In this document: positions 17,766-42,228 of the stretch, piece after piece
Position numbering within the stretch: position 1 is the stretch's first letter
Layout: every line of letters starts with the position of its first letter
Source: Escherichia coli
GTDB lineage: Bacteria; Pseudomonadota; Gammaproteobacteria; Enterobacterales; Enterobacteriaceae
DNA length: 64,000 nt
NCBI GenBank assembly: GCA_902500005.1
Contig: GCA_902500005.1_3678.1
Direction: 5' to 3' (one strand)
Notes under the pieces: generated by a model
Databases searched by the model: none
Told to the model about the DNA's origin: nothing
Seen by the model: only the letters and a program-made list of their open reading frames with translations
Made by a program: the position numbers and the translations under genes

Positions 17766-17776
17766 AAAGAGGGTAA

Positions 17777-18043: not shown

Positions 18044-18052
18044 GGAGAAATC

Positions 18053-19798: not shown

Positions 19799-19806
19799 TA
19801 TATCTA

Positions 19807-19832
19807 ACCGCTCCTGACGGGGCGGTTTTCTT
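19807..19832 (+). terminator. putative terminator/attenuator hairpin
   Basis: ccgctcctgacggggcgg hairpin + ttttctt. Confidence 0.35.
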
Positions 19833-19846
19833 ATCTGGAGAACACA

Positions 19847-22800: not shown

Positions 22801-25483
22801 CATCATGACTGCACTGAGATCAAACATGGATGGGACATCCATGTCCATGCAAATTCCGGTAACAAACGGATACAAACGTGTTGTGATGATCATTAAGTGC
22901 GACCTGATAGGTAAACAAGTTCTTGCAGAAAACGGGACATCCACACATCCTTTTGAGATCGCTCTGCACTATCAGTTTGCTGACTCACCTTTTGCAGGGG
23001 ATAAGAGAATATCTGATACAGACGCACAGCGTTGTAAGAAAGTATTGTTGGGTGCAGGTTGGTGGTGGTATGAGTTTGATTTAACAGACAAATTCACCGA
23101 CACGTCTAAAGTTGTAACAGGACTTCGTCTAGACCTTGGCGAGAACATGCACAAAGCTGTTTGTGATGGCACCTATGGTGACCCTACAATATACCTAAAA
23201 TATGTTTCTTTTGAGCATCCGGAAGATGTTGTCTACGGTCCAAAACTGAGATTGTTTGGCAGCTGGATTGCAAAAGATAGGGTAGGCATGGGTAAGAAGG
23301 TAAGAGGGTTCTTGGTTGATGCAGGAACAGAAGACATGCTGGTTAATGCAGTATGGCCTGAATTACCTGGGACTCAGTGGGACAACTCAGCCAAATCTAT
23401 AAACTGGTTTAACATTCATAGGGCCATGTGGACCACTAACTGCTACTTGTGGAGAGAGCTTAACGATCAGGCCTTTGGATTCAGCGATGGTAGAAGGATG
23501 GCGATCATTTGCTGGACAACACTGCAAAGATGTTATGACCATGACTATGAGATTGGGGGCAGGGCATGGAAAAATATCAGGGATAGAATCATAACCAATT
23601 TTGCAGACGACAACGGTGGTGGAGCACATAACTTTGGCACAAGCCGACTCATCCATTTGAACGGATCCTCAGCCTACAAGAAAGAAGGTTACTCTGGGTC
23701 TATGATCGAGTGGGGTCTGGTGAAAGATGCTCGCGTATTGATGGGCCAGCAACTTGCTGCCGCAATAGGTCCCAGCGCAGTGCAGTCGGTTAAACCAGCG
23801 TGGTTCGATATTCCATTGTGGTCACCCGGAACACCGGGAACTGCTGCAATCAACCCTACCACTGGGGATCTAGAAATCTCCTGGGAGGACTTGAAGCAGG
23901 TCGGTGGTTGGGACAAAACAGGGTACCAGGTTCAGTGGTGGAGAGCTGATGGATCTTTAGCTGCTGATGAGTTTGTTAAGGACAATTTCTACACTATGTC
24001 CTCTGCAAAAGCACAGCAATTATTTGGTCAGGCAACTCCGTCAACGATCACCATGTCTATGTGCTGTAAAGACAACAGGACTGGAGCTTTGGGGCCAAGG
24101 GTTGCTAAAGTTTTCTCAGGTATTAAATGGAATCTACCTGTCCAAAGTATTTCATGGAAGCAAATAGGTGATAACAAGCTGCTGGTTACCCCTGCCTGTC
24201 AGTTCAACGCAACTCTTAACGTTGATCCTGCTGTTGCGGCAAACTCAGCTAAAGCTTCTGACTTCTCTGTGTCTAACACTGCTATGGCAGATGTGAGGAA
24301 GATTGACACGCTGAACGCCAGAATTACCTGTAAAAACACTTATGGCACATTCCAAATCATCAACAACTTCACAGATGCTGATTCTAAGGTAGTGAGGACA
24401 GCAAGCCAGACTCTGAGTTTAGGAACTCTGGCCTATGCGGCCCTGATCACCGAACAGTCGGCAACACTCCAAGGAGGTGGTGTAGGCAAGTCCATTACAA
24501 CACCTGTGTGGAAGCCAAATGAGTGGGTTGTGTTTGATTTGACTGTGGACTTCTCCAGCGATAATAACTGGACATGGGTAAGGAATTGCTTGTCACAACT
24601 GATGGGTGGTCCAAGCTCCGTTAGTGATAGCTACGACTCCACTGACCCGAGTGTGTTTCAGGTGGGTAAAACTCACCCGGAGACTGGAGCAACGTTGCCT
24701 GACAGGAAGTATGCTTTGGTTTGCATCTCTTACGGGAAGGCAGATGTCACCTTCTCAGGGACACACACTTATAACGGAACCTACAACTTCTCAAGGAAGT
24801 ATAGTCTCAAAGCAGGGAACATTATAGACGAGGTTGGTGTGCTGTATAATCCGGGCAACGGCATAGGGATTGTGGGTGGTAAACTGCAGATGCAGGAACC
24901 TTCTATTACCCCTTCCAACGTATCCGGGATTAGAAAGACTTGGGAAAGTAGTAATACCAACATTGCAACAGTGGATGCCACCACAGGACTGGTAACATTT
25001 AAAGCTACTGGGAATGTCACCATAAAGTTTGTAGTTACAGATGATGCAGGGCGCAAAACGTCTTCAACATCTTTTACTGTCAAACAGATGGCACCACAGT
25101 GGAGAATGTGGATAGGTACAGCAACAAACGGGGCATACCCTAATCCGGCAGGTACTTCTGGTATGAAGACTTTCTCTACAAGCAAACCGATGGAGTACGG
25201 CAGCGGTCCTAAGGTAGGGCAGATGGTGTACTTTGGTGCGTATATTCCTGAAATTATAGGGCTTCCGAGAAGTCAGCTTCAGTTGCTGTTTGGGGCTGGT
25301 GTTGACGATCTTGCCACTTTCGGGTATAGCGACAACATCGAGGCTGCAAGGAGTTCAGGATGGGTAGGGTTCAGAATGGAGTCTGGAAAGGAAGGCAGGA
25401 TTCTAGGGACAGCCTCTATAGGTGTTATGTTCCCTGGTGACCAGCAGTATCGTCTAGAAGCCTACGCAACCTTTTCTCGTTAA
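19847..25483 (+). CDS. giant tail fibre/adhesin-like protein (1878 aa) with Big_2 Ig-like domain
   Basis: ATG start; Big_2-like segment …SSNTNIATVDATTGLVTFKATGNVTIKFVVTDDAGRKTS… near C-terminus. Confidence 0.6.
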   Translation: MLPIPLLKLGRHFLDKRGGIKELAVLSYPIDNSDGTSNTVSYVNSLAILFDDGQLNITGYNKFGECRTGDRSPINYPSETAWNVDHVWRADRAFVIRTFDNQFFYIGCTAGLIGSTAAGGNDVCVNEWTPLPEQIVKGLHLDTHPERLIEVMGGINNTVWVIAEAEGTGILNLYGSGNNTYGSLHVDKNQHATPVKIGETSENPETGPWKNPSINCEVHDNSVIFGGPRGFWIAGYDFLRNNSRNDLVWPPVQITRNDLRGIPADEEWKGFMCGPNGAVIATQRMHRPDDQQLVNVFYGQNIWGDDTWRELNITYTHEVMMARGYGTSGIFFNNGTKQYRGFSRNLCNDIGAQSANNSPRADFIHYQALATAKYVEQRLPVSWTESVYFQGIHREGFLGTFTVVNGKLWWSGIPRGSFTGSNNLFGGRLNSQGFTEVPENWYKNVPVDSWGVDDIFDVNGVSSVSNIYIGDTVKMKLKPQPEGATFIIDKIELVNAAGTVVTDANYQFSTNWNHGGANEVVVTQYNRNVNRRGLYSVKITYHDKHGTGRTHTTRTLNWNTIVPAYPSNGKWHTVGRNKQFHVNDTVYFGLNGTQPAVEGDTSYMVRLHRMDAGSVTYDVTQEIYDQRRATYDNIVKTQALWEFNPNGKGGKMLQVNEQNGTSLTVHEHPDPWPDPGKPHPGARTLKIVSHDAGYFGIRWEATVRYVDGTTNNIGITLGGTSEDSSLKIAYTPRGISIDNMDVVRNGYGDVNVKVTLGEHLGGERIIMYAFDHDPRTNGTYANQAWSYLINAPEPNTKEFYYGMKRDVCKKTGTHDWIAICVKDERTAWDEPVNRWFIGIPTRSDKYVAEYIVCMGGTNLNMCWNEDVNKYSDYDYMRDYSCNLWFNQTTGYPPRQARVNPAIFTDTQVFLTKQANEVQTFKNKYDPNKWFYNCYGAFFWGPGELPGGGSCLNEATYASDYIMGQVKKYKIIPGPETLGNAVDPYIIMTALRSNMDGTSMSMQIPVTNGYKRVVMIIKCDLIGKQVLAENGTSTHPFEIALHYQFADSPFAGDKRISDTDAQRCKKVLLGAGWWWYEFDLTDKFTDTSKVVTGLRLDLGENMHKAVCDGTYGDPTIYLKYVSFEHPEDVVYGPKLRLFGSWIAKDRVGMGKKVRGFLVDAGTEDMLVNAVWPELPGTQWDNSAKSINWFNIHRAMWTTNCYLWRELNDQAFGFSDGRRMAIICWTTLQRCYDHDYEIGGRAWKNIRDRIITNFADDNGGGAHNFGTSRLIHLNGSSAYKKEGYSGSMIEWGLVKDARVLMGQQLAAAIGPSAVQSVKPAWFDIPLWSPGTPGTAAINPTTGDLEISWEDLKQVGGWDKTGYQVQWWRADGSLAADEFVKDNFYTMSSAKAQQLFGQATPSTITMSMCCKDNRTGALGPRVAKVFSGIKWNLPVQSISWKQIGDNKLLVTPACQFNATLNVDPAVAANSAKASDFSVSNTAMADVRKIDTLNARITCKNTYGTFQIINNFTDADSKVVRTASQTLSLGTLAYAALITEQSATLQGGGVGKSITTPVWKPNEWVVFDLTVDFSSDNNWTWVRNCLSQLMGGPSSVSDSYDSTDPSVFQVGKTHPETGATLPDRKYALVCISYGKADVTFSGTHTYNGTYNFSRKYSLKAGNIIDEVGVLYNPGNGIGIVGGKLQMQEPSITPSNVSGIRKTWESSNTNIATVDATTGLVTFKATGNVTIKFVVTDDAGRKTSSTSFTVKQMAPQWRMWIGTATNGAYPNPAGTSGMKTFSTSKPMEYGSGPKVGQMVYFGAYIPEIIGLPRSQLQLLFGAGVDDLATFGYSDNIEAARSSGWVGFRMESGKEGRILGTASIGVMFPGDQQYRLEAYATFSR

Positions 25484-25495
25484 CAAAGGGGTAAA

Positions 25496-25527
25496 TAAAA
25501 AGGGGCCAAACGGCCCCTTTCTTTTTA
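25496..25527. terminator. bidirectional rho-independent terminator between convergent blocks
   Basis: aaaaa-aggggccaaacggcccct-ttcttttt: hairpin flanked by A-run and T-run. Confidence 0.65.
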
Positions 25528-25530
25528 TAG

Positions 25531-25731
25531 TTAGTAATACTCCCAACATGCCCCATCTTCAGACGGCTTGACGCGCTTACCTTTATGGTCAACATAGGTA
25601 TAGCCACAACCTTCACAAATAACAGGTGCTGCATAGCCTTCCTTCCACTGATCCTCAGTGATCAGACCTTCCAAATCTTTGCAGTCAAAGCCAAACAACT
25701 CTTCAGAGCAATCTTTACAAAAATCAGCCAT
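25531..25731 (-). CDS. small zinc-ribbon protein (66 aa)
   Basis: ATG with GAGGA RBS; CKDC…CEGC cysteine pairs. Confidence 0.4.
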   Translation of the reverse strand: MADFCKDCSEELFGFDCKDLEGLITEDQWKEGYAAPVICEGCGYTYVDHKGKRVKPSEDGACWEYY

Positions 25732-25734
25732 TTC

Positions 25735-26142
25735 TCAGTCCTCGCATTTAACAAATTTTTCTATAGATCCACCAAGCACAGCTTGTTGTTTGATGGCACT
25801 TTCTTCATCATAGTGGATAGACTTATGTTCCGTACCTCCAAACTTACCTGTGTGGAAGGTGTGCACCCAAATCTCTTTAGGAAGGGATTTATTCTCTTCC
25901 TCCACCAACTCCCACATACCCCACAAGTGATCTGTGATATCTCTGATGAAATATCCCTCGCCGAGGTTTGTATTCACACTGTAAGCTGATTCGTGATCTC
26001 CGCAAATATAACGGAAGGCAGTGTACTCTTTACCTGGTGTGAAGTGAGTATCCATTAGTATGGCTGTTAAAGAATAAGGGTCTCGAAAGCCCAAGAACTT
26101 TAGTTTAACAATTTCGACATTTACATCTGCAAGATTATCCAT
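25735..26142 (-). CDS. hypothetical protein (135 aa)
   Basis: Track start 26199 is TTG; in-frame ATG at 26142 preceded by GAGGAG. Confidence 0.4.
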   Translation of the reverse strand: MDNLADVNVEIVKLKFLGFRDPYSLTAILMDTHFTPGKEYTAFRYICGDHESAYSVNTNLGEGYFIRDITDHLWGMWELVEEENKSLPKEIWVHTFHTGKFGGTEHKSIHYDEESAIKQQAVLGGSIEKFVKCED

Positions 26143-26303
26143 GACGATCTCCTCTGTTTGGTTGGTGAGAATTATATATAGATCTGGTGGTGGTGTCAAG
26201 CTTAATTTTAAGAGATCTGAGAGGGTATTTTATTCAGGAAGGCAATCGCACAGGGTGGAGAAATTTATGAAGGCACAGGCCTCGTTTGAGGCCTTAAATT
26301 CTA

Positions 26304-26684
26304 TTATGACACTTTGACATAGCGCTCTGACAAAGCTGGGAAGCCAAAAGTAGTGCCTATACTACCATAGGCTATCCACCATTGGAGTTCATCGTGACAC
26401 CATTTTCCGATCAGGAAGGTGCTGGGATAGCGGGTCAGTATTTTGGCATAAGCTTTAGGATCTGCATCTTCTGGGATAATGATGCTTGGAATATCTTTGT
26501 TATGACCACAGCAGCAGTTTAGCGTTTTCAAACCTGCTGCCCACAAACTCATGATAGGCTTAGCCATACACTTATCAAGGCACACACGTTTTTTGCCGTC
26601 ACGAAGATTTTTAGGCACATCAACGATAACATTTGGATGCTTGGCACCTTTCACTTTCCAATTATAGGATTTACACTTGCACAT
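26304..26684 (-). CDS. Cys-rich hypothetical protein (126 aa)
   Basis: ATG with GGAG RBS; CKCK…CLDKC…CCCGH cysteine clusters. Confidence 0.4.
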   Translation of the reverse strand: MCKCKSYNWKVKGAKHPNVIVDVPKNLRDGKKRVCLDKCMAKPIMSLWAAGLKTLNCCCGHNKDIPSIIIPEDADPKAYAKILTRYPSTFLIGKWCHDELQWWIAYGSIGTTFGFPALSERYVKVS

Positions 26685-26910
26685 TTAATCAGTCTCCGTC
26701 TAGAAAGCCGCACTATACGTTTTTGAGGTATACTTTACTTAAAGTCTTTATCACCTGCCACGATTGCATGAATCCACTCATTGTGATGCTCAATAGCGGT
26801 GAGATGTAACATGATGTAGTGATCGTCATTGCCAAACATGATATGATAGGCTTTGGCAGCATTTTGATATAACTTCCACATCAGGTAATGATATCTTCGC
26901 CTCATGGCTC

Positions 26911-27381
26911 TTACTCCGGTTCAGGATCTGGGTAATCTTCAATAATAAAGGGCCATCCGTTCCGCTTAGCCTCAGACTTATACTCAATCTCCTTCATTGC
27001 AAACTCTAACTGATTCTTAGCCGGAATACATGCCGGAGAATCATCAATCCAGATATCTGGGTAGATATCAAACTGCGCCAGGTAGGCTGCCTTCTGAACA
27101 CCACCTGTGTAGAACACACCAACATCGAGCTCCTTGCGCCAATACTCAATGTCTACATTGTCTTGAGTAATGAATCGGAAAGTCACAAGGTAGACTGTCC
27201 ACCCCTCCTTCTTCAGATCCCTGATCAGGCTGGAGAAGATGAAAGGGCTCGCATTAAACGTTCCATCAAAGTCGATGGCAATGATGTGCGTGCCGTGGCG
27301 AGTCTCATATGGATTGCTCGTGGTAAGATTGCTGTAATTAAAAGGGACTTCTTCCCCGCAGTAGCTGTAGTCCATATTCAC
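26911..27381 (-). CDS. HAD-superfamily phosphatase (possible nucleotidase / 3'-phosphatase)
   Basis: HAD motif I HIIAIDFDGTF near N-terminus; GTG start overlapping upstream stop (alternative ATG at 27375). Confidence 0.55.
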   Translation of the reverse strand: MNMDYSYCGEEVPFNYSNLTTSNPYETRHGTHIIAIDFDGTFNASPFIFSSLIRDLKKEGWTVYLVTFRFITQDNVDIEYWRKELDVGVFYTGGVQKAAYLAQFDIYPDIWIDDSPACIPAKNQLEFAMKEIEYKSEAKRNGWPFIIEDYPDPEPE

Positions 27382-27653
27382 ACCTTCTCGTTGATAAATT
27401 TACGGGCGGTTTGGTGAGTTGTTTCTGCTGTCTTCAGAATGATATTAATTTTATCGTCAAGATCATTCATCTCGGCAGTTAATTCAGGAATCTCTCCGGC
27501 ATGCATGGTGAAATCATACATAGACATGCCCAAGATCTCATTGATGCGGCGGTTGCATTCTGCAGCACGCTGGTTCATTTTCCAAGCTAACACCAAAGCC
27601 TCCTGCGTAGCCTCTAGTGCAAAATCTAATACGTCGGCCTCTTCTTTCGTCAT
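27378..27653 (-). CDS. hypothetical protein (91 aa)
   Basis: ATG with AGGAGAG RBS. Confidence 0.4.
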   Translation of the reverse strand: MTKEEADVLDFALEATQEALVLAWKMNQRAAECNRRINEILGMSMYDFTMHAGEIPELTAEMNDLDDKINIILKTAETTHQTARKFINEKV

Positions 27654-27710
27654 CTTAGTCTCTCCTGTTGTATTGTTGGTAGGTGTATGAATACCTTATA
27701 ACTCACCTTT

Positions 27711-28277
27711 TTATTCAAACTGCAATAGTAAGTCCACCACCGCGCTAGGTCTGTCAACAAATTCCCCAGGTCCACATGCCCACAGAGGGTATCCGTCTAC
27801 ATACCGCCAAATCCAACCTGCAGTGTGGAGTTCGAGCAGGGCAGTACCGTCCTTACTGTCAACCACTCTTTCCCACAGTGTCGGGCAGCGAAGCTTGAGG
27901 ATCGGATCCCCTCCCTTATACCCATCCATGTAGATACCCATTGCAAAGTTCAGCATCATCTTTTTGTGCACTGATCTTTTACTGAGGGTACTCATCACTT
28001 CCTCTTTGTGAATGTTTGTAAGCTTCTCCTTGGCTACCCGCAGATCGTTGCAACCATTGTTCAGCAGATCTTCCAGACACTTGATCCGAAGGTCGTGAAT
28101 GTCTTTGTCGTGTACCGTTGGCACAGGGTCGTAGCGGTATAGCACTGTTGATACAAGGTTGCTCGGGTGTGGGTCTGACAGCAACCCATAACCCCAATAC
28201 TCTTCTGTATCTGAAAGGACAAGACACCCAATGTCTCTGTCAAGCTTTCCTGTGTTGTAAGCCACATTGACCGCCAT
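27711..28277 (-). CDS. hypothetical protein (188 aa)
   Basis: ATG with GGAG RBS. Confidence 0.4.
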   Translation of the reverse strand: MAVNVAYNTGKLDRDIGCLVLSDTEEYWGYGLLSDPHPSNLVSTVLYRYDPVPTVHDKDIHDLRIKCLEDLLNNGCNDLRVAKEKLTNIHKEEVMSTLSKRSVHKKMMLNFAMGIYMDGYKGGDPILKLRCPTLWERVVDSKDGTALLELHTAGWIWRYVDGYPLWACGPGEFVDRPSAVVDLLLQFE

Positions 28278-28279
28278 GA

Positions 28280-28525
28280 CTATAGCTCCACTAGCAAAGT
28301 GCTTTCAAAGTGCCGTTCATGCAAACCGTTGTAAGGGACCACTTCTACAACGCCATCACGGACATATGGGGCCATCATGGTGGTATAATCTCCAAACGGG
28401 TTGGTATTGTCACTAACCACAACCACCTTCTGCCCTTCCTTGGCAGAGTGCCAAATAGATCTGCACTTCATCAGGTGTTCGAGAGCTCCAGGTAAAATTT
28501 TGTTACGTTCTTTACGGGTCTTCAT
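28280..28525 (-). CDS. hypothetical protein (81 aa)
   Basis: ATG overlapping upstream stop (ATGA). Confidence 0.35.
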   Translation of the reverse strand: MKTRKERNKILPGALEHLMKCRSIWHSAKEGQKVVVVSDNTNPFGDYTTMMAPYVRDGVVEVVPYNGLHERHFESTLLVEL

Positions 28526-28971
28526 AACAGATATAGCTCCTTATGAAAGTGGTCTTTTAATTTCTCACTGAGAAACTTCTTGATACCTTCCTCTAAAGTG
28601 TTTTCGATGTAGTCCAGCTTAACTGCTTCGATGGACATATCATAGATTGCCAGCTCTAAGCTGTCAAGTCCCATCATAGCATGAACCATAAGATTTTCAT
28701 CTTCAGATACATTCAGGGGACTTCCTATAACATCTGGAGGCAGAATAGTTTCCCAATTATTCTGGGTGGTAGTTCTCCCGCCATCTACTTTACGGCGCAG
28801 TTCGAATGTGTTCTTAGTGTAGAACACTTCATAAGAAACGATACGACTGTCACTCTCATAATAAACGAAGTTCAGGTAGGAGCCTAGCCGCAGTCGGCAA
28901 ACTTCCACCCCAAACCATTGTTTCTTATAAGAATTCAGGCTAATGCTGTCGCATTCACGTTTGCTCAACAC
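28522..28971 (-). CDS. hypothetical protein (149 aa)
   Basis: GTG start 6 nt after AAGGAG. Confidence 0.4.
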   Translation of the reverse strand: MLSKRECDSISLNSYKKQWFGVEVCRLRLGSYLNFVYYESDSRIVSYEVFYTKNTFELRRKVDGGRTTTQNNWETILPPDVIGSPLNVSEDENLMVHAMMGLDSLELAIYDMSIEAVKLDYIENTLEEGIKKFLSEKLKDHFHKELYLL

Positions 28972-28987
28972 GGCTATCTCCTTTTTG

Positions 28988-29221
28988 TTAATCTTCGTAA
29001 ATCAGGATTTCTGCTTTAGGTTTTCGTGCTTTCAGGTCCAGCTCTATCCAGTGCACCATAGCTGTTTCAAGAAAAACAGCTTGGATGCATCCGTCCTCAG
29101 CGTGCCCCACCAACATAACGAGATCTTCACCTTCGTCATCTGCATCACGAACATAAAGAATCTCTCCAGATTCGAAGTCTTTCACAACCTGATTGCTAGA
29201 TAATTTTCTAATTTTTGCCAT
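28988..29221 (-). CDS. small paralog family member 4 (77 aa)
   Basis: Fourth gene of tandem, translationally coupled array; shares G(E/T)(I/V)… and acidic patches with the other three. Confidence 0.45.
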   Translation of the reverse strand: MAKIRKLSSNQVVKDFESGEILYVRDADDEGEDLVMLVGHAEDGCIQAVFLETAMVHWIELDLKARKPKAEILIYED

Positions 29222-29222
29222 A

Positions 29223-29486
29223 TCAGAAACCCTCTAAAAAGCTCTTGTAGAAAACAATCTCAGTATCCACACCAGTCACAATCTTGTCGTTCCTGATTTC
29301 ATCGGTAAGATAGGTGTCAAAACGCAGAACCTGTGTGGTGTTGTCACACATCCACTCAGCTGTGACCATTGCGAAAATCTTAGCATCTTCATTATCTGGT
29401 GTGAATGTTACCACCTCACCGCACTTAAACTTTTCGATAGGCTGAGTGTTAGCTTTCGGTTCTGCGATAGTGATTTTTGTGGTCAT
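29223..29486 (-). CDS. small paralog family member 3 (87 aa)
   Basis: …KCGEVVTF… / …VTGVDTEIVF… align with members 1 and 2. Confidence 0.5.
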   Translation of the reverse strand: MTTKITIAEPKANTQPIEKFKCGEVVTFTPDNEDAKIFAMVTAEWMCDNTTQVLRFDTYLTDEIRNDKIVTGVDTEIVFYKSFLEGF

Positions 29487-29749
29487 TATTCTCCTCCTTC
29501 TTTTGAATAGCTTGTCTCTCCAAGGATGGTAATTTTGGTGTCAAGCTCTGTAACTTTCATGTTTGGCGGCAGATCGTACAACTCATTATTTTCTAAATCG
29601 AACCCCCACACACAATGTTCTCCTGTTTTGACAATCATAACTATGTTTTGAATGCCGTCTCCGTCGCAACTTACCACGGTCCCACACGGAAAACTGTCTG
29701 CACGCTTTTTGTTCTTCACCTTAGAATTGAATACAATGCTGGTAGCCAT
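29486..29749 (-). CDS. small paralog family member 2 (87 aa)
   Basis: MAT…K.KK…GTVV…IVK…FDL…LP…VTELD..ITILGE shared with member 1. Confidence 0.5.
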   Translation of the reverse strand: MATSIVFNSKVKNKKRADSFPCGTVVSCDGDGIQNIVMIVKTGEHCVWGFDLENNELYDLPPNMKVTELDTKITILGETSYSKEGGE

Positions 29750-30012
29750 TATTGTTCCTCCACCATAACTTCGCCAAGAATTTCTATGCAGGCATCCATT
29801 TCTGTAACAACCAAACTGTGAGGTAGTTCTACAAACACCTTTCTGAACAGATCAAATACCCCAACATATATGTTTGCAGGATGTGATTTTACAACAAGTG
29901 CTGTATTCACATCCCCAAGTTCATCAACAAACATCACCACAGTGCCTGGAGCTACTGAGGACAGATACTTCTTAGTTTTACGGTTTGATGCAAATTTTAA
30001 CTCTGTTGCCAT
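29749..30012 (-). CDS. small paralog family member 1 (87 aa)
   Basis: ATG after GAGGAGG; same length and motifs as member 2. Confidence 0.5.
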   Translation of the reverse strand: MATELKFASNRKTKKYLSSVAPGTVVMFVDELGDVNTALVVKSHPANIYVGVFDLFRKVFVELPHSLVVTEMDACIEILGEVMVEEQ

Positions 30013-30027
30013 AAATAACCTCCTCTC

Positions 30028-31488
30028 TTACTTAGCGTACTCGATTAATTCCACAGTTTTCCCAAAGCTCGGGATATAATTTTTATTATACCCCTCAGTG
30101 AGGACCCATAGAGTATCGTACTTTTTCCACTTGTTGTCAACAACCTTTTGTTCAAAGTTATGCTCAAAGTATAGGTCGGTCAGGACGATGACATCTTTTG
30201 CATTAGGTATGTTGGCATCCAGATACTCGAACACGCAAGCAGCTGTTGTGCCCCATGTTGAGTGGACCTCATAGTTGATCATCTCATCTATGTTACCGCG
30301 AGTGTATACTTTAACCTCTCCAACCTCAGTTGACCAACAGAACATTGTAACCTTAAACTCTTTATACAGATTGCACAATCCGGTGATTTCATTGAACATT
30401 TTCTTTAAAGTTCTTTGAGAGATCGAGCCAGAAACGTCTAAAGCTACAACAATATCTATGGTGTTTTCCGGATTACGACCAGGAACAATAACGTGCTGGT
30501 TCTTGTTTATAGCCCCAACTTTTCGCATTGTGCTGGTCAAAGACCCAGATCGGCGACCAGGTTTTCTGTAGGTCAGTTCAGCCTTTCGTTTAGACAACAT
30601 GCGTTGCTTAATGATGTCTATATAGTTGATTACAGGCTTACCCCTGTTCTTGACAAACTCACGCACCGCCTCAGGGCAACGACCTCCGGAAGCTTGCATT
30701 GCTGCCTCCAGCATATCACCAGAGTCCTGCATGGCCTGATCTTTATCAGATTGACTGATTACAGGTTGTGGCTGATCATACCCCATAGCCTTTCCAAGAT
30801 TATCACTGGTGCCACCGTTCCCACTCATGTGATCATCGGTTTGTCGCTTATCACTTTGAGAGTTCTCACCTTTACCGTTCTTACTTTTACCGTTATTCTG
30901 ATCTCTTTGCTTATCAAGAACTGCATAAACGTTCTCAGCAATCCATCCATGAAACTTCATGTCGCAGTAGCAGCTGGCTAAGAAGCCAAAAGGCTTACCT
31001 TTCATGAACGTAGTGCTTTTCCCCTTCGGGAAGAAAACACAAGGAGGTTTGCTAAAGTCAACCACAAGGCCTGTGTTGATAACGTGATCACAAGCAATAT
31101 TGAACAGTTCCGGCTCAAAGCTTTTACCACGGACTAGGTGATCACAGATAATATGCCCCACCTCATGTGACAGAAGGAAGGCCACCTCTTTCACAGATTT
31201 TGGGGAATAGAAAACTTCAGCCATCTCAAACTGCTCGTCAGTTAGAGAAGCCTTAAGAATAGCCTTGCGCTCATCAGCCAATCCCATAATGAACTCAGGA
31301 CTGTAATAGATGCGTTTATGGTCGGTTGCCATGGTGGAGCACCATGTGTGGTTTTCTACGAACTGCAACCCTGACAGTAGTGTGCCATAAAACGGCAGCT
31401 TTTCAAGGAGATACATACGTGCAGCCTGCAACATTCTCAGGGCATCATCTTTTTGTGAGGCAATGATTTCTGAACTTCTGCTATCCAT
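30028..31488 (-). CDS. metallopeptidase-domain + von Willebrand A domain protein (DUF2201-like)
   Basis: HExxH motif (SHEVGHIICDH) in N-terminal half; vWA MIDAS motif (VVALDVSGS) in C-terminal half; ATG at 31488 after GGAG (track start is TTG). Confidence 0.65.
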   Translation of the reverse strand: MDSRSSEIIASQKDDALRMLQAARMYLLEKLPFYGTLLSGLQFVENHTWCSTMATDHKRIYYSPEFIMGLADERKAILKASLTDEQFEMAEVFYSPKSVKEVAFLLSHEVGHIICDHLVRGKSFEPELFNIACDHVINTGLVVDFSKPPCVFFPKGKSTTFMKGKPFGFLASCYCDMKFHGWIAENVYAVLDKQRDQNNGKSKNGKGENSQSDKRQTDDHMSGNGGTSDNLGKAMGYDQPQPVISQSDKDQAMQDSGDMLEAAMQASGGRCPEAVREFVKNRGKPVINYIDIIKQRMLSKRKAELTYRKPGRRSGSLTSTMRKVGAINKNQHVIVPGRNPENTIDIVVALDVSGSISQRTLKKMFNEITGLCNLYKEFKVTMFCWSTEVGEVKVYTRGNIDEMINYEVHSTWGTTAACVFEYLDANIPNAKDVIVLTDLYFEHNFEQKVVDNKWKKYDTLWVLTEGYNKNYIPSFGKTVELIEYAK

Positions 31489-31521
31489 TAAAACTCCAGA
31501 AGGGGCCAATGGCCCCTGTCA

Positions 31522-32562
31522 TTATTTAACGTGTTTGAAAATACCTGCCAACTCGGTCATTGTCATGCGGGTGGTCTTCATAAGATCTGTCATAGCTTTC
31601 TCCATAATTGGAGATACTACCATAAAGTTTCCTTTAGTGAAACCTTTATTCCAGTCGGTCACCAACAGGGGTTTAAGTCCAGCTCCAAGACGTTCACCAG
31701 TTAAAGCACAGCATTTGCGAATATACGAACTCTTAAATTGGCTGAACGACAGATCAACTTTCATACCTACATCGTAGAACGTTTGGCAATAGAAAGTGTA
31801 AGCTTTGGCAATCTCAACATCATCAGGTAGTGCAGGAACCTCTTCTGTAAGCTCCTCTTCGACCCCTTGAGTCTCTTTTTCCTCTTCATGCACCTGTTGC
31901 GTCATTTCTTCAATCTCTTCTGTGATAGGCTCGTTTACAATGTCGGAAATGTGCTTCTTGGGTGCACGATAAGTAACTTTAGACATCGGTAGCATATCTT
32001 CCTCCTCTTCTTCGTCAAAGAGTGCTAGTTTATCCTCTTCCGTTCCATATTGCAAGATGAAATCTTCAAAAGTATAATCACCTTTCAATTTCTCCATACG
32101 CTCTTCGCTCAGGTGGAGCATCATCTGCTGGACAATTTTTCGATCAGTTTCGTCTTTAATCAAGACTGCAGTCTTTTTATCTACCAGACAGTCCTTTAGA
32201 GAGTTGCATCTCAATCCCACCACACAACAGTTATCAACCGCATAAGGACCTTCATCATCTATCCGCTCCAGAGATGGGTAGAAAGGATTCCCCAGCCCGT
32301 TTTCATCTGTGTGCATGTCAAAAGGTATAAGGGTATAGTCGCATACTCCATCTCCTAAAAGTTTTTTACCAAATAGGAGGTATTCTTCCCATGACAGGTC
32401 GAACTCTATATCTCGTTTCCGTGCGTTATTCTGTTTGCGTCTATATTTTTTGAGCAAGCGCTCTAACTCTTCTGGTGTATAATATTTTTCAAGATTCATG
32501 AGTCGTCTCTCGTGCTCTGTAAGTGAAGAAATCGTATCAATTGTCTCAACAGATGTCAACAT
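31522..32562 (-). CDS. HNH-like (His-Me finger) domain protein with acidic linker (347 aa)
   Basis: …PSLERIDDEGPYAVDNCCVVGLRCNSLK resembles HNH endonuclease signature (from memory); poly-Glu linker; internal Met preceded by GAGGAGG. Confidence 0.45.
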   Translation of the reverse strand: MLTSVETIDTISSLTEHERRLMNLEKYYTPEELERLLKKYRRKQNNARKRDIEFDLSWEEYLLFGKKLLGDGVCDYTLIPFDMHTDENGLGNPFYPSLERIDDEGPYAVDNCCVVGLRCNSLKDCLVDKKTAVLIKDETDRKIVQQMMLHLSEERMEKLKGDYTFEDFILQYGTEEDKLALFDEEEEEDMLPMSKVTYRAPKKHISDIVNEPITEEIEEMTQQVHEEEKETQGVEEELTEEVPALPDDVEIAKAYTFYCQTFYDVGMKVDLSFSQFKSSYIRKCCALTGERLGAGLKPLLVTDWNKGFTKGNFMVVSPIMEKAMTDLMKTTRMTMTELAGIFKHVK

Positions 32563-32572
32563 CAAAAACGTG

Positions 32573-32601
32573 TTGACTTTACTCTAACTCCACAATATAG
32601 T
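32573..32601 (+). promoter_or_regulatory. sigma70-like promoter in divergent intergenic region
   Basis: TTGACT-17 nt-TATAGT, about 40 nt upstream of 32642 gene. Confidence 0.45.
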
Positions 32602-32641
32602 GCACCCATTCGAAAGAAAACTAACATAGGAGCACTTACTT

Positions 32642-33541
32642 ATGGCAAATCTTAACAGTTTTAGTACGCGGTGGAAACAGGACATAACAACCAATCTTTC
32701 AGCTGGGGACATCCTTTCTGCAATTTACGAGGCTTTAGATGATAAAGCTACTTCAAAAGCGGTTTGTACCAACCCATTAATTCCTATAGTGATGAAGGTT
32801 ATTGAGCGTAGATTGGTATCTGGGTCTGATAAGTGGACATATTTAGATAATGAAGGACACACCTATTCCAATGGGTATGTCGATATAAAAGTAGAATACG
32901 CGGTATCATACCGCCGGAGCGGTTCTGTAACTTTCAACTTCTCTGGAGGTTTTCGATCTCTGGCTACCTCACCTTTTGTTTCCTCAGAGGAGAAGTATGA
33001 GCTGCCATTTCTTTGGATGATGGCTAACGCGACAGGAAAAACCCCCGTTAGCATCCGAGTAAAATACAACTACAACGGATCTAGTAAGATCTATGCCGAA
33101 AGTGTCTCAGCAAGTTTTTATTTTGTGATGGGGGATGGAATCCTTAAACATATAAAGATGTGCGATATGCATGATGTTATAAATGAAGTGACTGATAAGA
33201 ATGTTCTAGTGAAAGACCTCAACAATTTTTATACACCCGGAGACTATTACGTCAGCCGTCCACTGTGCATCTTTAATGCCGCACACCCTCTAGGTGAGTA
33301 TTTGATCGCCAATAGCGATATTGCCAATAACCGCTTCGAGGTAGCAAGAGTTCAGAATGAGGTATTGACATCTTGCAAGAGCGGTGATAAGTTTACCGAA
33401 GAAGAGATGGGTGTTTTAGAAATGATGGGATATAAGTGTAGCCTTTGGGTAGATGAGGTGTTTAATGATTGCATCTATGGACAGGATATTTACCCATTAA
33501 AGAAGTATACTGATACAAGTTTAATTTATGCGAGGGTTTGA
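32642..33541 (+). CDS. hypothetical protein (299 aa)
   Basis: ATG with TAGGAG RBS; first gene of rightward block. Confidence 0.5.
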   Translation: MANLNSFSTRWKQDITTNLSAGDILSAIYEALDDKATSKAVCTNPLIPIVMKVIERRLVSGSDKWTYLDNEGHTYSNGYVDIKVEYAVSYRRSGSVTFNFSGGFRSLATSPFVSSEEKYELPFLWMMANATGKTPVSIRVKYNYNGSSKIYAESVSASFYFVMGDGILKHIKMCDMHDVINEVTDKNVLVKDLNNFYTPGDYYVSRPLCIFNAAHPLGEYLIANSDIANNRFEVARVQNEVLTSCKSGDKFTEEEMGVLEMMGYKCSLWVDEVFNDCIYGQDIYPLKKYTDTSLIYARV

Positions 33542-33543
33542 CT

Positions 33544-33816
33544 ATGATGAAGGCATGTGGTAATGTATATTACGTCGGTGAACATGTTCAGGCAGACAGT
33601 GTGTGGAAATCTATTAAGTCCACCACTGACGATGCCTTTCTGAGTGGACTATGTTTCCCCAATCCGGGAGACATCCTCCCTCATCCTGGAGATTTTGTTG
33701 TCAACAAGATGGACGGTTATACCGTGTGCCTGATGGTTGAAAAAATCTTTTTAGACACTAGACACAATCACCGTCTTGTGTTAAAATTTCAAGAATGTAA
33801 AATGACAATTGCCTAA
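33544..33816 (+). CDS. hypothetical protein (90 aa)
   Basis: ATG 7 nt after GAGGG (track start 33538 is TTG). Confidence 0.4.
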   Translation: MMKACGNVYYVGEHVQADSVWKSIKSTTDDAFLSGLCFPNPGDILPHPGDFVVNKMDGYTVCLMVEKIFLDTRHNHRLVLKFQECKMTIA

Positions 33817-33829
33817 GGAGACCTTACCG

Positions 33830-34186
33830 ATGTCTAAAGTTACTTATCGTGCAGCTATTTACTGCAATGAACACCCAATCAATAATGATGGTCACTGCCT
33901 TTTTAAAGAAAATCAATTGGGCTGTATTGTCCTCCCTGATGAAGGGGAAGGTTATCTTATTGCATTGACAGGGTTTGAACCTGAGGCTCTGGAAGCCAAT
34001 CTGGACTACCTGGTAGAAGAGGGTGCTGCAGACCTGGTTGCCAATGGCCTCTCCATAAGCCTTGACGAAGTAGAGCGCTTCATGGGCAATTACCGTGTAG
34101 TGCGTGAGTTTACTATCGAGGTGGAAACTCCGGAGTGGGGTAGCCATGAAACTAATGCCGAAGAAAAAGAAGAGGAGGTAGAATAA
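33830..34186 (+). CDS. acidic hypothetical protein (118 aa)
   Basis: ATG 8 nt after AAGGAG (track start 33809 is TTG); acidic C-terminus. Confidence 0.45.
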   Translation: MSKVTYRAAIYCNEHPINNDGHCLFKENQLGCIVLPDEGEGYLIALTGFEPEALEANLDYLVEEGAADLVANGLSISLDEVERFMGNYRVVREFTIEVETPEWGSHETNAEEKEEEVE

Positions 34187-34443
34187 TGAAAGTGCAGATC
34201 TTGACTAATGCCGAGAAGATGTTTATTGAAGATACACCTTTTGAAGCTGGTGAGCTACAGTTCATTTATTTTGTTGACTTAGATAAGGTGTTCCCTGCAC
34301 TGAATCTTGGTCTGGATGAAGTTCCTCATAAGGTTTTGTGCCAAGTTGTTCGTGCATTAGCGGCAGATGGGGAGTTCCACACCCTTGAAGATGTCCAGAC
34401 CTACGGGTATCTTGAACTACAACGAGAAGAAGAGGTGGACTGA
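34186..34443 (+). CDS. acidic hypothetical protein (85 aa)
   Basis: ATG overlapping upstream stop. Confidence 0.4.
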   Translation: MKVQILTNAEKMFIEDTPFEAGELQFIYFVDLDKVFPALNLGLDEVPHKVLCQVVRALAADGEFHTLEDVQTYGYLELQREEEVD

Positions 34444-34445
34444 TA

Positions 34446-34826
34446 ATGGCCCAGTGGAAGACAACAGTTGACCTTCATGATCAGTGGTTAGGACGCATCG
34501 CTGAAGACGGGAAGCTAGTGGAGTGGGACAATAAGCATGTTAGCGAGTTGGCAAGTATTGTAGCTGGCAAGTTACGCTCCAAGTTCCCTGAACAACTGGA
34601 TCCTGATAGTTCAAAGTTCGATCCTGAGTTAGAGGATGTTGTATACTACTTCGACACCGTTGATGACTACGACGCGTGGTTTGCAGCACGGGAGCTTTAC
34701 CCACAAGGCTCTGCTATGCGCCAGATGGAAGAAGATTATCCTCCGTGTGAGCAATTCAATAGTGCAATGACTTGCCTCTATGATTGGGCAGATAAGAACC
34801 TTGTCTGGATTCGGACTGCATTTTAG
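34446..34826 (+). CDS. hypothetical protein (126 aa)
   Basis: ATG start immediately after upstream stop. Confidence 0.45.
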   Translation: MAQWKTTVDLHDQWLGRIAEDGKLVEWDNKHVSELASIVAGKLRSKFPEQLDPDSSKFDPELEDVVYYFDTVDDYDAWFAARELYPQGSAMRQMEEDYPPCEQFNSAMTCLYDWADKNLVWIRTAF

Positions 34827-34870
34827 TGGGCAGGAATGGCGGCAAGGATGCTGCTTAAGGAGTAGTAGAG

Positions 34871-35140
34871 ATGTTATACCAGCAATATGAACTTCGTGCA
34901 GAAAAAGAGTTAAATTTTGACAAAGATATTCACAGATATTATTATGGGAAAGTTAGAGGGCAAGCAAGAAAGTGTACTCCAACACTCTTTTATGCCAGCA
35001 GACGACTAGCGCCAGAAGAGGCAACAGCAGAAAGGGTTGCGTACAACTGGAGAGTCACGTATGATATTGACAGATTCGATGTGATATCTGTTTTGGAAAA
35101 CTTTGAAAACACTTACACACAAGTAGAGGACTTTTACTAA
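34871..35140 (+). CDS. hypothetical protein (89 aa)
   Basis: ATG with GGAG RBS. Confidence 0.4.
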   Translation: MLYQQYELRAEKELNFDKDIHRYYYGKVRGQARKCTPTLFYASRRLAPEEATAERVAYNWRVTYDIDRFDVISVLENFENTYTQVEDFY

Positions 35141-36324
35141 TGTCAAGAAACGTATTCGAAAGTGGTCAAATCACTGTCCGTGAGTTGCCAGCTATTATTC
35201 AGTTTGCCCAACGTCATAGCCGATCTGTCCTAATTTTGGGACCAATGGGTGTGGGTAAAAGCCAGGTGATGAAGCAGATCGCTGATAATATGTTCGGTGA
35301 GCGAGATGACAACCTTGTTGACGTGCGACTGTCAGATAAAGATCCTGCCGACTTATCTGGGCTACCTATCCCTGTAGAAGCGGATGGAACTACACGTACA
35401 GTGTTTGCAATTCCAGAATTTTGGCCTGCGGATCCTGACTGGAGCGGAATTATCTTTCTGGATGAGCTCACTCATGCAGATAACTACCTGCAAAAGGTTG
35501 CAATGCAAATTATGCTTGACCACAAGTGCGGCACCTATGCATTCCCTAAGGGTTCTGTTTTTGTGGCTGCGGGTAACCGTTCTACAGATGGTGCGGTTCT
35601 TTCGGCGCTCGAAGCCCCTCTGGCTAACCGTTTTATCATTGTAGAGGTTACAAGCAATGCAGAGGTGTTTATTGAGGACTACGCATTCCTTAATGGGGTG
35701 CATTCCTCTGTAATTGGATATTTGAAAAGAGTTCCATCAGCTATTGATAATTATGAGGCTATGGCTGAGATTAATTGTCCATCTTTTGCCACACCACGAT
35801 CTTGGGTTGCTGCATCTGACATCTTGCACGATTTTGACAGCGGTATTATTTCTGACGCTATGGCCCGTGTTCTTCTGCAAGGTGCTATTGGTCACACTGC
35901 AGCGGTAGAGATCTGGACATACCACACCAAGAAACGCAATTTACCGGAAATCGGTCGGATTATGGCAGGTGGCTGCAAAGAATACGTAGGTCCTAAGCAG
36001 CCAGACATTTTGTGGATTCTTGGATCTGAAGGTTGTATCGCTATTCGTAATATGATGGAAAATGCAAGTATCTCAGACGAAGATCTTGTCAGCTGCGTGG
36101 CAAACTTCCTCGATTTCCTTTGGGAAAACTTCAAGGACGAGAACCGAGATTTTGTATTCTCAGTCTTTATGGCGATGATGAAACCTAATGCCTTAGGAAA
36201 TGCCTTGCTTATCGGTAAAGGGCGTGACAAGATTGTTGCTCAGCTGATCAAAGCATACCCAAACCTGATGAAGATTGTAAAAGAGTTTGGTGAAGAGTTT
36301 AGCGCCATTTTGGCTAAAGCTTAA
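35140..36324 (+). CDS. AAA+ ATPase, MoxR/CbbQ (AAA_5) type
   Basis: Walker A ILGPMGVGKSQ; Walker B IIFLDELTHA; sensor-1 VFVAAGNRS. Confidence 0.75.
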   Translation: MSRNVFESGQITVRELPAIIQFAQRHSRSVLILGPMGVGKSQVMKQIADNMFGERDDNLVDVRLSDKDPADLSGLPIPVEADGTTRTVFAIPEFWPADPDWSGIIFLDELTHADNYLQKVAMQIMLDHKCGTYAFPKGSVFVAAGNRSTDGAVLSALEAPLANRFIIVEVTSNAEVFIEDYAFLNGVHSSVIGYLKRVPSAIDNYEAMAEINCPSFATPRSWVAASDILHDFDSGIISDAMARVLLQGAIGHTAAVEIWTYHTKKRNLPEIGRIMAGGCKEYVGPKQPDILWILGSEGCIAIRNMMENASISDEDLVSCVANFLDFLWENFKDENRDFVFSVFMAMMKPNALGNALLIGKGRDKIVAQLIKAYPNLMKIVKEFGEEFSAILAKA

Positions 36325-36334
36325 GGGGGGTTGT

Positions 36335-36715
36335 ATGGCTAAAGTAGGTAAGCGGGGAAACTACCTGGTGGTATTGACCGAGGAGCCGGAGAAGGAGTAC
36401 GAATGCAGCTCCACTTGCGTGATCGATATCCGAGAAAAAGATGTAGATGAAATCTGGTTTAAAATATTGGACGCTTGCGATAGCAGTGATTATTTCTTCA
36501 TTTATGTCAACGATAAGGCTGGATTCTTCCATGACGACGGAGAGTTGCCGTATGAAATCTATGAACTTGTAGAGGCTTGCCATCGTGGAGATGCGGAGTT
36601 GTTTGGCCTACGGCTGAAAAGCGGTAAATTCTTCTATCAAGATGAGTGCATGAATCTTCATAACTTTGTAGAGGGAACTTGCAACGATGGAGAGATTTTG
36701 GCACACTACGATTAA
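36335..36715 (+). CDS. hypothetical protein (126 aa)
   Basis: ATG after AAGGGGGG (track start 36287 is TTG). Confidence 0.4.
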   Translation: MAKVGKRGNYLVVLTEEPEKEYECSSTCVIDIREKDVDEIWFKILDACDSSDYFFIYVNDKAGFFHDDGELPYEIYELVEACHRGDAELFGLRLKSGKFFYQDECMNLHNFVEGTCNDGEILAHYD

Positions 36716-36725
36716 TTTCTAAGAC

Positions 36726-36754
36726 CTCCCCCGCTTCGGCGGGGATTTTCTATT
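36726..36754 (+). terminator. rho-independent terminator
   Basis: cccccgcttcggcgggg hairpin + attttctattt. Confidence 0.5.
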
Positions 36755-36764
36755 TGGAGTCATT

Positions 36765-37265
36765 GTGAAAATTAAGATCTTTGCTATTATTTTGAGCGCA
36801 CTTTTATCGCTGCCTGTTGTTGCAGCACCAAAACAAAAAGTATATCATACTTGCAAGCCCTCAGATACTAAGGAAAACATTCTGGCATGCAATATCTACA
36901 GGGAGGCTAGAGGGGATGGCACGATGGGTATGCTGGCATCAGGGTTTGCCACACTAAACAGGAAATCTCACCCCAAATACCCAGACACTATAAGAAAGAT
37001 TGTCTACCAACCTAATCAGTTTTCGTGGACAAACCACGGCAAAACTTTTAAGGTGACAGAAAAAGATTCATGGGATCACGCTAAAAGTCTTGCAAAGATG
37101 CTTCTAAAGGTCTATAATAACAACCATGTTGCATACATGGCTATGGACATAACAGGTGGAGCAACACACTACCATACAACCAAAGTACGACCGAAATGGG
37201 CAAAAAAGATGCAGAGGACAGCTCAATTCGGGAGTCATATCTACTACAAGGAGCGCAATAAATGA
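36765..37265 (+). CDS. secreted SleB-like cell-wall hydrolase (166 aa)
   Basis: GTG start after GGAG; signal peptide MKIKIFAIILSALLSLPVVAAP; SleB-family motifs (IYREARGDG, ATLNRKSHP, VYQPNQFSWT). Confidence 0.55.
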   Translation: MKIKIFAIILSALLSLPVVAAPKQKVYHTCKPSDTKENILACNIYREARGDGTMGMLASGFATLNRKSHPKYPDTIRKIVYQPNQFSWTNHGKTFKVTEKDSWDHAKSLAKMLLKVYNNNHVAYMAMDITGGATHYHTTKVRPKWAKKMQRTAQFGSHIYYKERNK

Positions 37266-39244: not shown

Positions 39245-39254
39245 GGAGACCAAG

Positions 39255-42168: not shown

Positions 42169-42228
42169 TAAGATGTGAGTCTAAAGGGGAGGCACTCCTC
42201 CCCACAAAAACTAAGGAAGCACTAAACG

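Follow-up and report, generated by a model that had tools for sequence, protein, structure and literature searches.

A leftward, probably early transcription unit of an rV5-like Vequintavirus is conserved in its genus rather than hypervariable

Introduction

Virulent phages have variable early-gene 'accessory regions' in which anti-defence genes cluster, and T4 Srd, an early protein, was once proposed to be a decoy of sigma-70/sigma-38. According to Qi et al. 2015, as cited in PMC4980113, Srd binds the catalytic (N-terminal) half of RNase E and speeds the decay of host mRNA. Here we describe a block of 15 minus-strand genes, numbered from g01 at the left end (position 25531) to g15 at the right end, in a 64,000-nucleotide stretch of DNA (the window in what follows; contig GCA_902500005.1_3678.1 of the Escherichia coli assembly GCA_902500005.1) which belongs to an rV5-like phage of the genus Vequintavirus, i.e. 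to the myoviruses of ~137 kb. A sequence-only reading of this DNA had proposed that the block is a candidate island for host takeover and anti-defence. We consider it probable that the block is a leftward early (or early-to-middle) transcription unit, equivalent to rV5 genes 11-26, and that it is no variable island but belongs to the conserved portion of the genus genome.

The locus has been described in phage rV5 (Kropinski et al. 2013, Virol J 10:76; PMC3606486), for which four transcription units were proposed, one of them consisting of genes 11-26. Table S4 of that paper lists P010, P011, P025, t026 and t027, the sequences of which match those found in the window; gp11 is described as a Srd homologue, and Table S3 links gp12 to DUF2201_N, gp21 to a phiEco32 homologue, gp25 to an RTP homologue and gp26 to wV8 gp011. 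The window shares with rV5 the genus, the gene order, the bidirectional terminator and the promoters P010, P011 and P025, but there are three differences. Firstly, it carries an extra paralogue, g12. Secondly, its P025 is a perfect consensus promoter whereas that of rV5 matches at 10 of 12 positions. Thirdly, the linker of its g15 holds a 29-nucleotide patch that appears to be copied from the neighbouring operon. The architecture of the block, published for rV5 in 2013, is already known and is nothing new in kind.

Methods

Window positions correspond to positions of phage CarlMeissner (MZ501054) minus 22004. Conservation was assessed by megablast of the block and of three control segments of equal length, counting the records with at least 80% query coverage. 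Gene content was compared gene by gene in the annotation tables of CarlMeissner, Murica, JES2013, FFH2, bov10K2, DrSchubert and S127.

Results and Discussion

Anatomy of the block

Megablast of 25400-32700 identifies the window as Vequintavirus DNA, with 99.6% identity to the phages pangalan, ime, CarlMeissner, nimi and Murica. The 15 genes of the block occupy 25531-32499 at a coding density of 95%, and the gene calls are the same as those of CarlMeissner bas48_0042-0056. It is indeed the sole minus-strand block of the window, because every other annotated gene in the span lies on the plus strand; GC skew turns negative over 25-33 kb only. On the left there are tail, baseplate and lateral tail-fibre genes, the last of which encodes an intimin-domain fibre of 1878 amino acids (19847-25483). 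On the right the plus strand carries six small genes, a MoxR ATPase, an endolysin and rIIA/rIIB, then helicase, methyltransferases, primase-helicase and DNA polymerase, and beyond the polymerase dozens of small genes. The earlier placement of the block between tail and replication modules is approximate: its neighbour on the right is the rightward unit of small genes, MoxR ATPase, endolysin and rIIA/rIIB, and the replication genes begin ~8 kb further on. Rfam and tRNA scans found no RNA genes in the whole window.

The two boundaries had been predicted as a bidirectional terminator and a divergent promoter region, and both were recovered (Table 1). The hairpin at the left edge separates the plus-strand tail-fibre gene from the minus-strand block, equals t026/t027 of rV5 and can act in both directions because it is preceded by an A-run and followed by a T-run. 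At the right edge two sigma-70 promoters stand back to back within 32531-32601, their -35 boxes being 13 bp apart within a palindrome. The span of 25531-32562 initially given for the block is accurate at the left end, but its right end follows the longest open reading frame (ORF), starting from a TTG at 32565. The real start is the ATG at 32499, as annotated in related phages; a start at the TTG would overlap the -35 box of g15's own promoter. Translational coupling is as tight as had been suggested, with spacers of at most 5 nucleotides at 9 of the 14 gene junctions, including four overlaps.

The signals divide the block into two units: unit A, from g15 to g03, is served by the leftward promoter, while unit B consists of g02 and g01, begins at 26199-26171 and ends at the terminator. 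The P020 promoter proposed for rV5 (with a 21-nucleotide spacer) was not recovered by our promoter scan of the window. The hairpin following g03 is a possible weak terminator that would end unit A, and the silence of a simple terminator scan at this site is explained by its weak T-run. The hairpin between g15 and g14 was called a terminator by the annotators of Murica and is absent from the rV5 list; only a weak T tract, which contains the ribosome-binding site of g14, comes after it, and it is possibly an attenuator or an RNA-stabilising element.

Over the block, 96-99% identity to this E. coli phage is also reached by sixteen GenBank records that are titled 'Campylobacter phage' and give C. 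jejuni as host; host labels or samples have probably been mixed up in these cases.

Conservation within and beyond the genus

The block (25400-32700) was matched by 122 records, 113 of which cover at least 80% of it. In each control segment 111 records reach this coverage, out of 120 for the small-gene arm (52000-59300), 125 for the rightward early unit (33000-40300) and 124 for the tail fibres (17500-24800), and the identity spectrum of the block falls between those of the controls. Gene content and gene order agree in the seven annotated genomes except at g02 and g12. Of 118 records, 43 have g12 at 95% identity or more; it is missing from JES2013, FFH2, bov10K2, S127 and rV5. A base-level comparison with seven genomes gave eight indel sites of at least ~200 bp. 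Two of these are in the block and six outside it, namely a tail-fibre segment, a 1.33-kb methyltransferase gene, a 726-bp HNH gene and segments of 843 bp, 638 bp and 4.3-4.7 kb. The block is not the main site of gene-content variation, since only two of the eight sites are inside it and the largest are elsewhere. The idea of a hypervariable accessory island is largely contradicted by these figures, and the near gene-for-gene conservation that we found is one half of what the sequence-only reading had itself named as speaking against it.

In other genera of the Vequintavirinae the conservation is restricted to a few genes. The order and orientation of g15, g14 and g05, behind a divergent promoter region, are kept in Seunavirus (SalP219, LNA4) and Mydovirus (KB57), and across the promoter region these loci also retain the rightward gene r05 and the MoxR ATPase. 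The gene g09 is also kept in SalP219, where its tblastn match comes directly after the vWA gene, but not in LNA4. In the Certrevirus CR8 only g14 was found among the block genes, directly downstream of the ATPase and on the same strand. When the syntenic regions of Seunavirus, Mydovirus and Certrevirus were searched by tblastn, the remaining 11 of the 15 genes gave no counterpart, and neither did most of the small rightward genes; these genes are specific to the genus but fixed in it.

The indel sites outside the block include several that look mobile. Around 42224-42232 the window is without a 1.33-kb N6-adenine DNA methyltransferase gene (of the anti-restriction type) that all seven relatives carry. 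Its DNA polymerase gene (46367-49987) is split into ORFs of 809 and 118 amino acids by an 843-bp insert (48791-49633), which contains an ORF of 168 amino acids, annotated as an HNH endonuclease in FFH2, with no Pfam match and no Rfam intron match; JES2013, bov10K2, DrSchubert, S127 and CarlMeissner do not have this insert. At ~46368 a mobile-looking 726-bp HNH gene is found in JES2013 and FFH2 and not in the window. A mobile-looking 638-bp insert (54389-55026, within the ORF 54322-55032) is shared by the window and JES2013, where it is called 'endonuclease VII', and is absent from FFH2 and CarlMeissner. The largest difference in gene content is in the small-gene arm at ~63180-63187, where JES2013, FFH2 and CarlMeissner carry an extra 4.3-4.7 kb.

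Timing of expression

We infer that the block is expressed early (or early-to-middle) because its promoters are of the host sigma-70 type. The late-promoter motif of rV5, TGGTAAAATA, has 14 matches, 9 of them on the plus strand of the structural region where ~6 are expected. None is located upstream of a block gene, and the minus strand has only one match with a single mismatch, inside the coding sequence of g15, so a late-promoter role of this motif in the block was rejected. Table S3 of the rV5 paper (PMC3606486) gives no virion mass-spectrometry flag for any product of genes 11-26.

The lead gene g15 is Srd-like

By alignment, g15 is a homologue of T4 Srd and, as such, a predicted host-takeover factor. 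Its product matches PHROG 3118 (1.8e-112), the Srd family PHROG 1400 ('Srd anti-sigma factor', 6e-10) and PHROG 4592 ('decoy of sigma70', 9e-13), and it is the only block protein with a match in the PHROGs 'host takeover' category. In BLASTP against T4 Srd the N domain aligns with E 3e-7 (24% identity over 143 residues) and the C domain aligns to the same Srd region with E 1e-3. The pattern C..Y..F...ER.D...Y..N..V...N is invariant among the g15 homologues, T4 Srd included. Like Srd, g15 has ~130 aligned N-terminal residues with a shared His-less HNH-like pattern, and a host-type promoter precedes both genes, the region being early in T4 and probably early here. Unlike Srd, g15 carries the domain in two copies joined by an acidic linker and is without the C-terminal half: the alignment covers Srd residues 4-133 only, and a second N-type domain stands where that half would be, so that g15 is not a full-length Srd.

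The gene had been described as HNH-like, which is right in so far as an HNH-type domain is present, twice, but the domain is degenerate and belongs to the Srd family. In our reading of the motif, all seven homologues in the alignment, T4 Srd among them, have Arg (LERID) at the position of the catalytic His, and no Pfam HNH model matches g15 at E <=0.1; on both grounds the database label of HNH endonuclease is not supported.

The linker of g15 contains one arm of a perfect 29-nucleotide inverted repeat (31963-31991 on the minus strand, 33825-33853 on the plus strand; 0 expected by chance). The other arm is at the start of the plus-strand gene 33830-34186, and both arms encode MSKVTYRA. The plus-strand arm is genus-wide, and the g15 arm is confined to the lineage of Murica, FFH2 and the window, in which it replaces a different linker sequence. 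The patch resembles the product of a micro gene-conversion, with the two divergent operons as partners. A role as an invertible segment or in regulation was considered and rejected, as the g15 arm is limited to a single lineage and no fetched genome shows an inverted arrangement.

g14 and the MoxR ATPase

The prediction of a metallopeptidase with a vWA domain was confirmed for g14. Both Pfam domains score above their gathering cut-offs (PF13203 DUF2201_N, 4.4e-28, 99.1 bits, cut-off 23.2; PF09967 DUF2201, 6.1e-11, 43 bits, cut-off 26.4), and the translation has an intact zinc site (HEVGH, HExxH) and an intact MIDAS motif (DVSGS, DxSxS). The other Pfam matches are weak ones to Peptidase_M48 and VWA_CoxE. 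Homologues are found in 621 phage records, among them jumbo phages and N4-like phages where they are annotated as N4 gp25-like. The RefSeq and PHROG label 'HNH endonuclease' was rejected, since Pfam detects no HNH domain; both this label and 'anti-sigma factor' look wrong on a DUF2201 zincin-vWA gene.

It is useful to compare g14 with the pairs of MoxR AAA+ ATPases and vWA proteins of the N4 gp24-gp25 type. Both Pfam domains, the HExxH and MIDAS motifs and a co-conserved MoxR-type ATPase are common features, and the ATPase accompanies g14 in all four loci of other genera (SalP219, LNA4, KB57 and CR8). The comparison is structural, not mechanistic, and the arrangement differs: in Vequintavirus, Seunavirus and Mydovirus the two genes belong to divergent operons that flank the promoter region, 3.6 kb apart in the window, whereas in Cronobacter phage CR8 (Certrevirus, 12680-15542) they are adjacent on one strand. 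The two genes are conserved together over a wide range of phages, and we infer that their products are partners.

The HAD-like protein g05

The claim that the block encodes a HAD phosphatase is partly supported. All four catalytic motifs (DxDxT; S/T; K; DD) are kept, the residues D37, D39, T41, T67, K97, D113 and D114 being invariant in seven sequences and at least 90% conserved among 59 diverse family members, but no curated HAD profile of Pfam or NCBIfam matches at E <=0.1 and the fold search, although compatible with HAD, is non-specific. Two of the 59 family members weakly match the 5'-nucleotidase family PF06189 (E 0.0014), and the best hit of a PDB profile search is a weak full-length match to 2obb (E 0.015). 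PDB sequence searches with g05, g14, g15 and a profile of seven g05 sequences were empty or gave noise, and a word-indexed homologue search returned only close relatives (5 matches for g05 and 11 for g03). In 1.84 billion proteins the family has 935 representatives at E <=0.001, among them a single fusion with a cREC_REC domain; most are of 90-130 amino acids, and the family has no Pfam model.

The terminal cassette g02-g01

The zinc ribbon noted earlier is well founded: the CxxC...CxxC of g01 (C5, C8, C39, C42) is invariant across rV5-, FelixO1- and T5-like homologues. By tblastn g01 is found in 836 phage records, comprising rV5-like, FelixO1-like, T5-like and some Pseudomonas phages, i.e. 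at least three unrelated families of virulent phages, always among small genes of the early region. Its nucleotide identity drops to ~76% between members of the genus while that of the flanking genes exceeds 95%. The neighbouring g02 has two alleles in the genus, either the 135-amino-acid form or a pair of genes for 72 and 109 amino acids (FFH2, bov10K2, DrSchubert). The long allele occurs at 90% identity or more in 86 records and other records match its N-terminal module alone at ~50%; sipho- and podoviruses also have its C-terminal module. Unit B, self-promoted, mosaic and horizontally shared, is the sole part of the block that behaves like an exchangeable accessory cassette.

The most serious alternative to our reading is one in which only promoter 26171-26199, g02, g01 and the terminator form an exchanged accessory 'moron' that acts on an enterobacterial host factor or defence, the rest of the block being core. 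Besides the features just listed, it is favoured by the signals around the cassette (a consensus promoter of its own, preceded by a hairpin, and a terminator at the far end) and by the FFH2-type phages, where a different promoter and different upstream genes are found at the same site. We nevertheless think that this is possible but rather doubtful: g01 is present in nearly all of the complete Vequintavirus genomes examined, and the cassette would therefore be mobile in origin but fixed in the genus; no member of the g01 family, T5.062 and wV8 gp011 included, has a known function; and nothing points to a role of the cassette in defence as opposed to host takeover in general. One could speculate further that the segment 26199-25531 is a horizontally exchanged host-takeover or counter-defence module in which g01 would target a common factor or immune system of Enterobacteria and the variable g02 would tune g01, but we find this quite improbable.

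Other genes of the block

The features of the block and its surroundings are collected in Table 1. The Cys-rich protein mentioned in the sequence-only reading is g03, with 8 Cys in 126 residues; it is found in 116 Vequintavirus records and hardly anywhere beyond them. A paralogue array had been proposed for g10-g13. The relationship is clear for g12 and g13 (39% identity, z 16.8), but it is only marginal for g11/g12 (z 4.3) and g10/g11 (z 3.9). Most block products are small and acidic, and the genes not discussed above have matches only to small PHROG families with no assigned function. When the block proteins were scanned against Pfam, NCBIfam and PADLOC, nothing beyond DUF2201 was found; this includes g07, which has no match in any of the three.

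Two labels carried by database records deserve comment. The designation of g09 as a 'tail protein' is unsupported, gene 17 having no mass-spectrometry flag in rV5 Table S3, and the name 'alpha 1-3 fucosyltransferase' given to the rightward gene next to the promoters (32642-33541) has no Pfam or NCBIfam support and looks wrong.

Table 1. Genes and regulatory signals of the leftward block and the MoxR ATPase gene, in window coordinates
Feature	Position	Strand	Remarks
Bidirectional intrinsic terminator	25499-25520		AAAGGGGCC-AAAC-GGCCCCTTT; 9-bp GC-rich stem, A-run upstream, T-run downstream
g01, 66 aa, acidic, zinc-ribbon-like (rV5 gp26; T5.062 / wV8 gp011 family)	25531-25731	-	PHROG 2210
g02, 135 aa, mosaic two-module protein (rV5 gp25)	25735-26142	-	PHROG matches split at residues 12-81 and 91-135
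Internal promoter for g02-g01 (rV5 P025)	26171-26199	-	perfect TTGACA-17-TATAAT, 12/12; AGGAG ribosome-binding site in context
Hairpin after g03 stop	26276-26291	-	GGCCTC-AAAC-GAGGCC; also in FFH2; read from sequence
g03, 126 aa, basic, Cys-rich (rV5 gp24)	26304-26684	-	8 Cys; genus-restricted
g04, 56 aa, ORFan (rV5 gp22)	26735-26905	-	PHROG 12006 only; annotated in CarlMeissner, Murica
g05, 156 aa, minimal HAD-like putative phosphatase (rV5 gp21)	26911-27381	-	four HAD motifs; conserved across genera
g06, 91 aa, acidic helical ORFan (rV5 gp20)	27378-27653	-	PHROG 12604 only; pI 4.7
g07, 188 aa, ORFan (rV5 gp19)	27711-28277	-	PHROG 12232 only
g08, 81 aa (rV5 gp18)	28280-28525	-	PHROG 4868, unknown function
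g09, 149 aa (rV5 gp17)	28522-28971	-	PHROG 6790; kept at syntenic place in Seunavirus
g10, 77 aa, acidic	28988-29221	-	local alignment to g11 marginal (z 3.9); possible distant array member
g11, 87 aa, acidic	29223-29486	-	marginal paralogue of g12 (z 4.3), colinear from residue 1; PHROG 12861
g12, 87 aa, paralogue	29486-29749	-	39% identity to g13, E 6e-11, z 16.8
g13, 87 aa, paralogue of g12	29749-30012	-	PHROG 10698
g14, 486 aa, zincin metallopeptidase + vWA (rV5 gp12; N4 gp25-like)	30028-31488	-	DUF2201_N + DUF2201
Palindromic hairpin between g15 and g14	31501-31517	-	AGGGGCC-ATT-GGCCCCT
g15, 325 aa (rV5 gp11)	31522-32499	-	two Srd-N-type (degenerate HNH) domains with acidic linker between
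Leftward block promoter (rV5 P011)	32559-32531	-	TTGACA-17-TACGAT; extended -10 TG
Rightward promoter of divergent unit (rV5 P010)	32573-32601	+	TTGACT-17-TATAGT
MoxR-type AAA+ ATPase (rV5 gp4), outside block	35140-36324	+	PHROG 1297, 2e-110; Walker A GPMGVGKS, Walker B FLDE

Early operon or anti-defence island

The reading that we prefer can be put together as follows. Unmodified host sigma-70 RNA polymerase would start at the leftward member of the back-to-back promoter pair and read unit A, i.e. 13 translationally coupled genes from g15 to g03, and the second consensus promoter would drive g02-g01 up to the bidirectional terminator shared with the tail-fibre operon. The double Srd-type g15 most likely binds a host factor of RNA metabolism or transcription, RNase E or sigma, and would in this way favour phage expression. 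By analogy with N4-like and jumbo phages, g14 most likely acts together with the MoxR AAA+ ATPase of the divergent operon as a pair for ATP-driven remodelling and proteolysis. The rest of unit A would contribute the minimal HAD-type phosphatase and ~10 small, mostly acidic proteins specific to the genus.

Several points weigh against this picture. The early timing is read from promoter type alone, the searched literature containing no transcriptome of any rV5-like phage, and the hairpins after g15 and g03 could make expression along the unit uneven. The homology to Srd is confined to the 130 N-terminal residues, and the RNase E-stimulating activity may not transfer to g15, which is without the C-terminal half of T4 Srd. 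The MoxR ATPase and the vWA protein are encoded on opposite strands at the distance given above, and no experiment links the two in any phage. The HAD assignment of g05 is made without Pfam support and with a non-specific fold match. Finally, 9-11 genes of the block have no inferred function.

A second alternative sees the block as an auxiliary unit of DNA or nucleotide metabolism that belongs with the replication module; the MoxR-vWA-zincin pair would mature or remodel a replication or nucleotide enzyme and the HAD-like protein would dephosphorylate nucleotides. This would agree with the location of g14 homologues in the early/replication regions of N4-like phages, with the complete HAD motifs of g05 and the weak 5'-nucleotidase matches in its family, and with the fact that the block faces the arm carrying helicase, primase and polymerase. 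We regard it as unlikely, however, as there is no substrate evidence, it fits only 2 of the 15 genes, and the lead gene is Srd-like and points to RNA or transcription and not to DNA. In addition, the PHROG label 'DNA, RNA and nucleotide metabolism' on g14 stems from the name 'HNH endonuclease', which Pfam contradicts.

The similarity to the accessory regions of virulent phages is real in some respects: there are small, mostly acidic ORFans behind host-type promoters, and there is one cassette of promoter, genes and terminator with alternative alleles and shared parts. On the other hand, more than 110 genomes share a stable gene content, the block does not vary more than the controls, and no known anti-defence homologue is present. 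Apart from the Srd/sigma-decoy match of g15, the anti-restriction/anti-CRISPR-type categories of PHROGs and PADLOC gave no match in the block, no dedicated anti-defence library having been searched, and the sequence-only expectation that the block collects defence inhibitors is not borne out. The literature that we searched on Vequintavirus anti-defence, rV5-like transcriptomes, phage DUF2201 and EdH4 CRISPRi held no data on the block genes. Something of the earlier proposal survives in g15, as a candidate for host takeover, and in the mosaic, self-promoted and horizontally shared g02-g01, but the block as a whole is a conserved core operon of the genus.

That the entire block should be a hypervariable island of defence inhibitors and nucleotide-metabolism modifiers with fast turnover between close relatives is very improbable: the absence of 11 genes from the other genera, the small acidic products (a property of many known inhibitors), the patchy g12, the two alleles of g02 and the spread of g01 over unrelated phages would all suit such an island, but no control segment is better kept than the block, the largest indels (4.3-4.7 kb, 1.33 kb and 843 bp) are outside it, g03 is present in 116 Vequintavirus records, the neighbouring rightward genes are equally genus-specific, and the only PHROGs match of the relevant kind is that to Srd.

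Conclusions

With the architecture published in 2013 and the block part of the genus core, the discovery value of the locus is low. There is practical value for phages that are therapeutic candidates, in which the real sites of variation are the methyltransferase and homing-endonuclease insertions, the small-gene arm, the tail fibres, g02 and g12. Three propagated annotations are corrected, namely 'HNH endonuclease' for the zincin-vWA protein, 'tail protein' for g09 and 'fucosyltransferase' for the first rightward gene. Judged by their homologues, the zincin-vWA and HAD-like products belong to families spread far beyond the genus, and the double Srd-like protein, the MoxR/zincin-vWA pair, the minimal HAD family and the T5.062-type zinc ribbon are worthwhile targets for functional studies in rV5-like phages.

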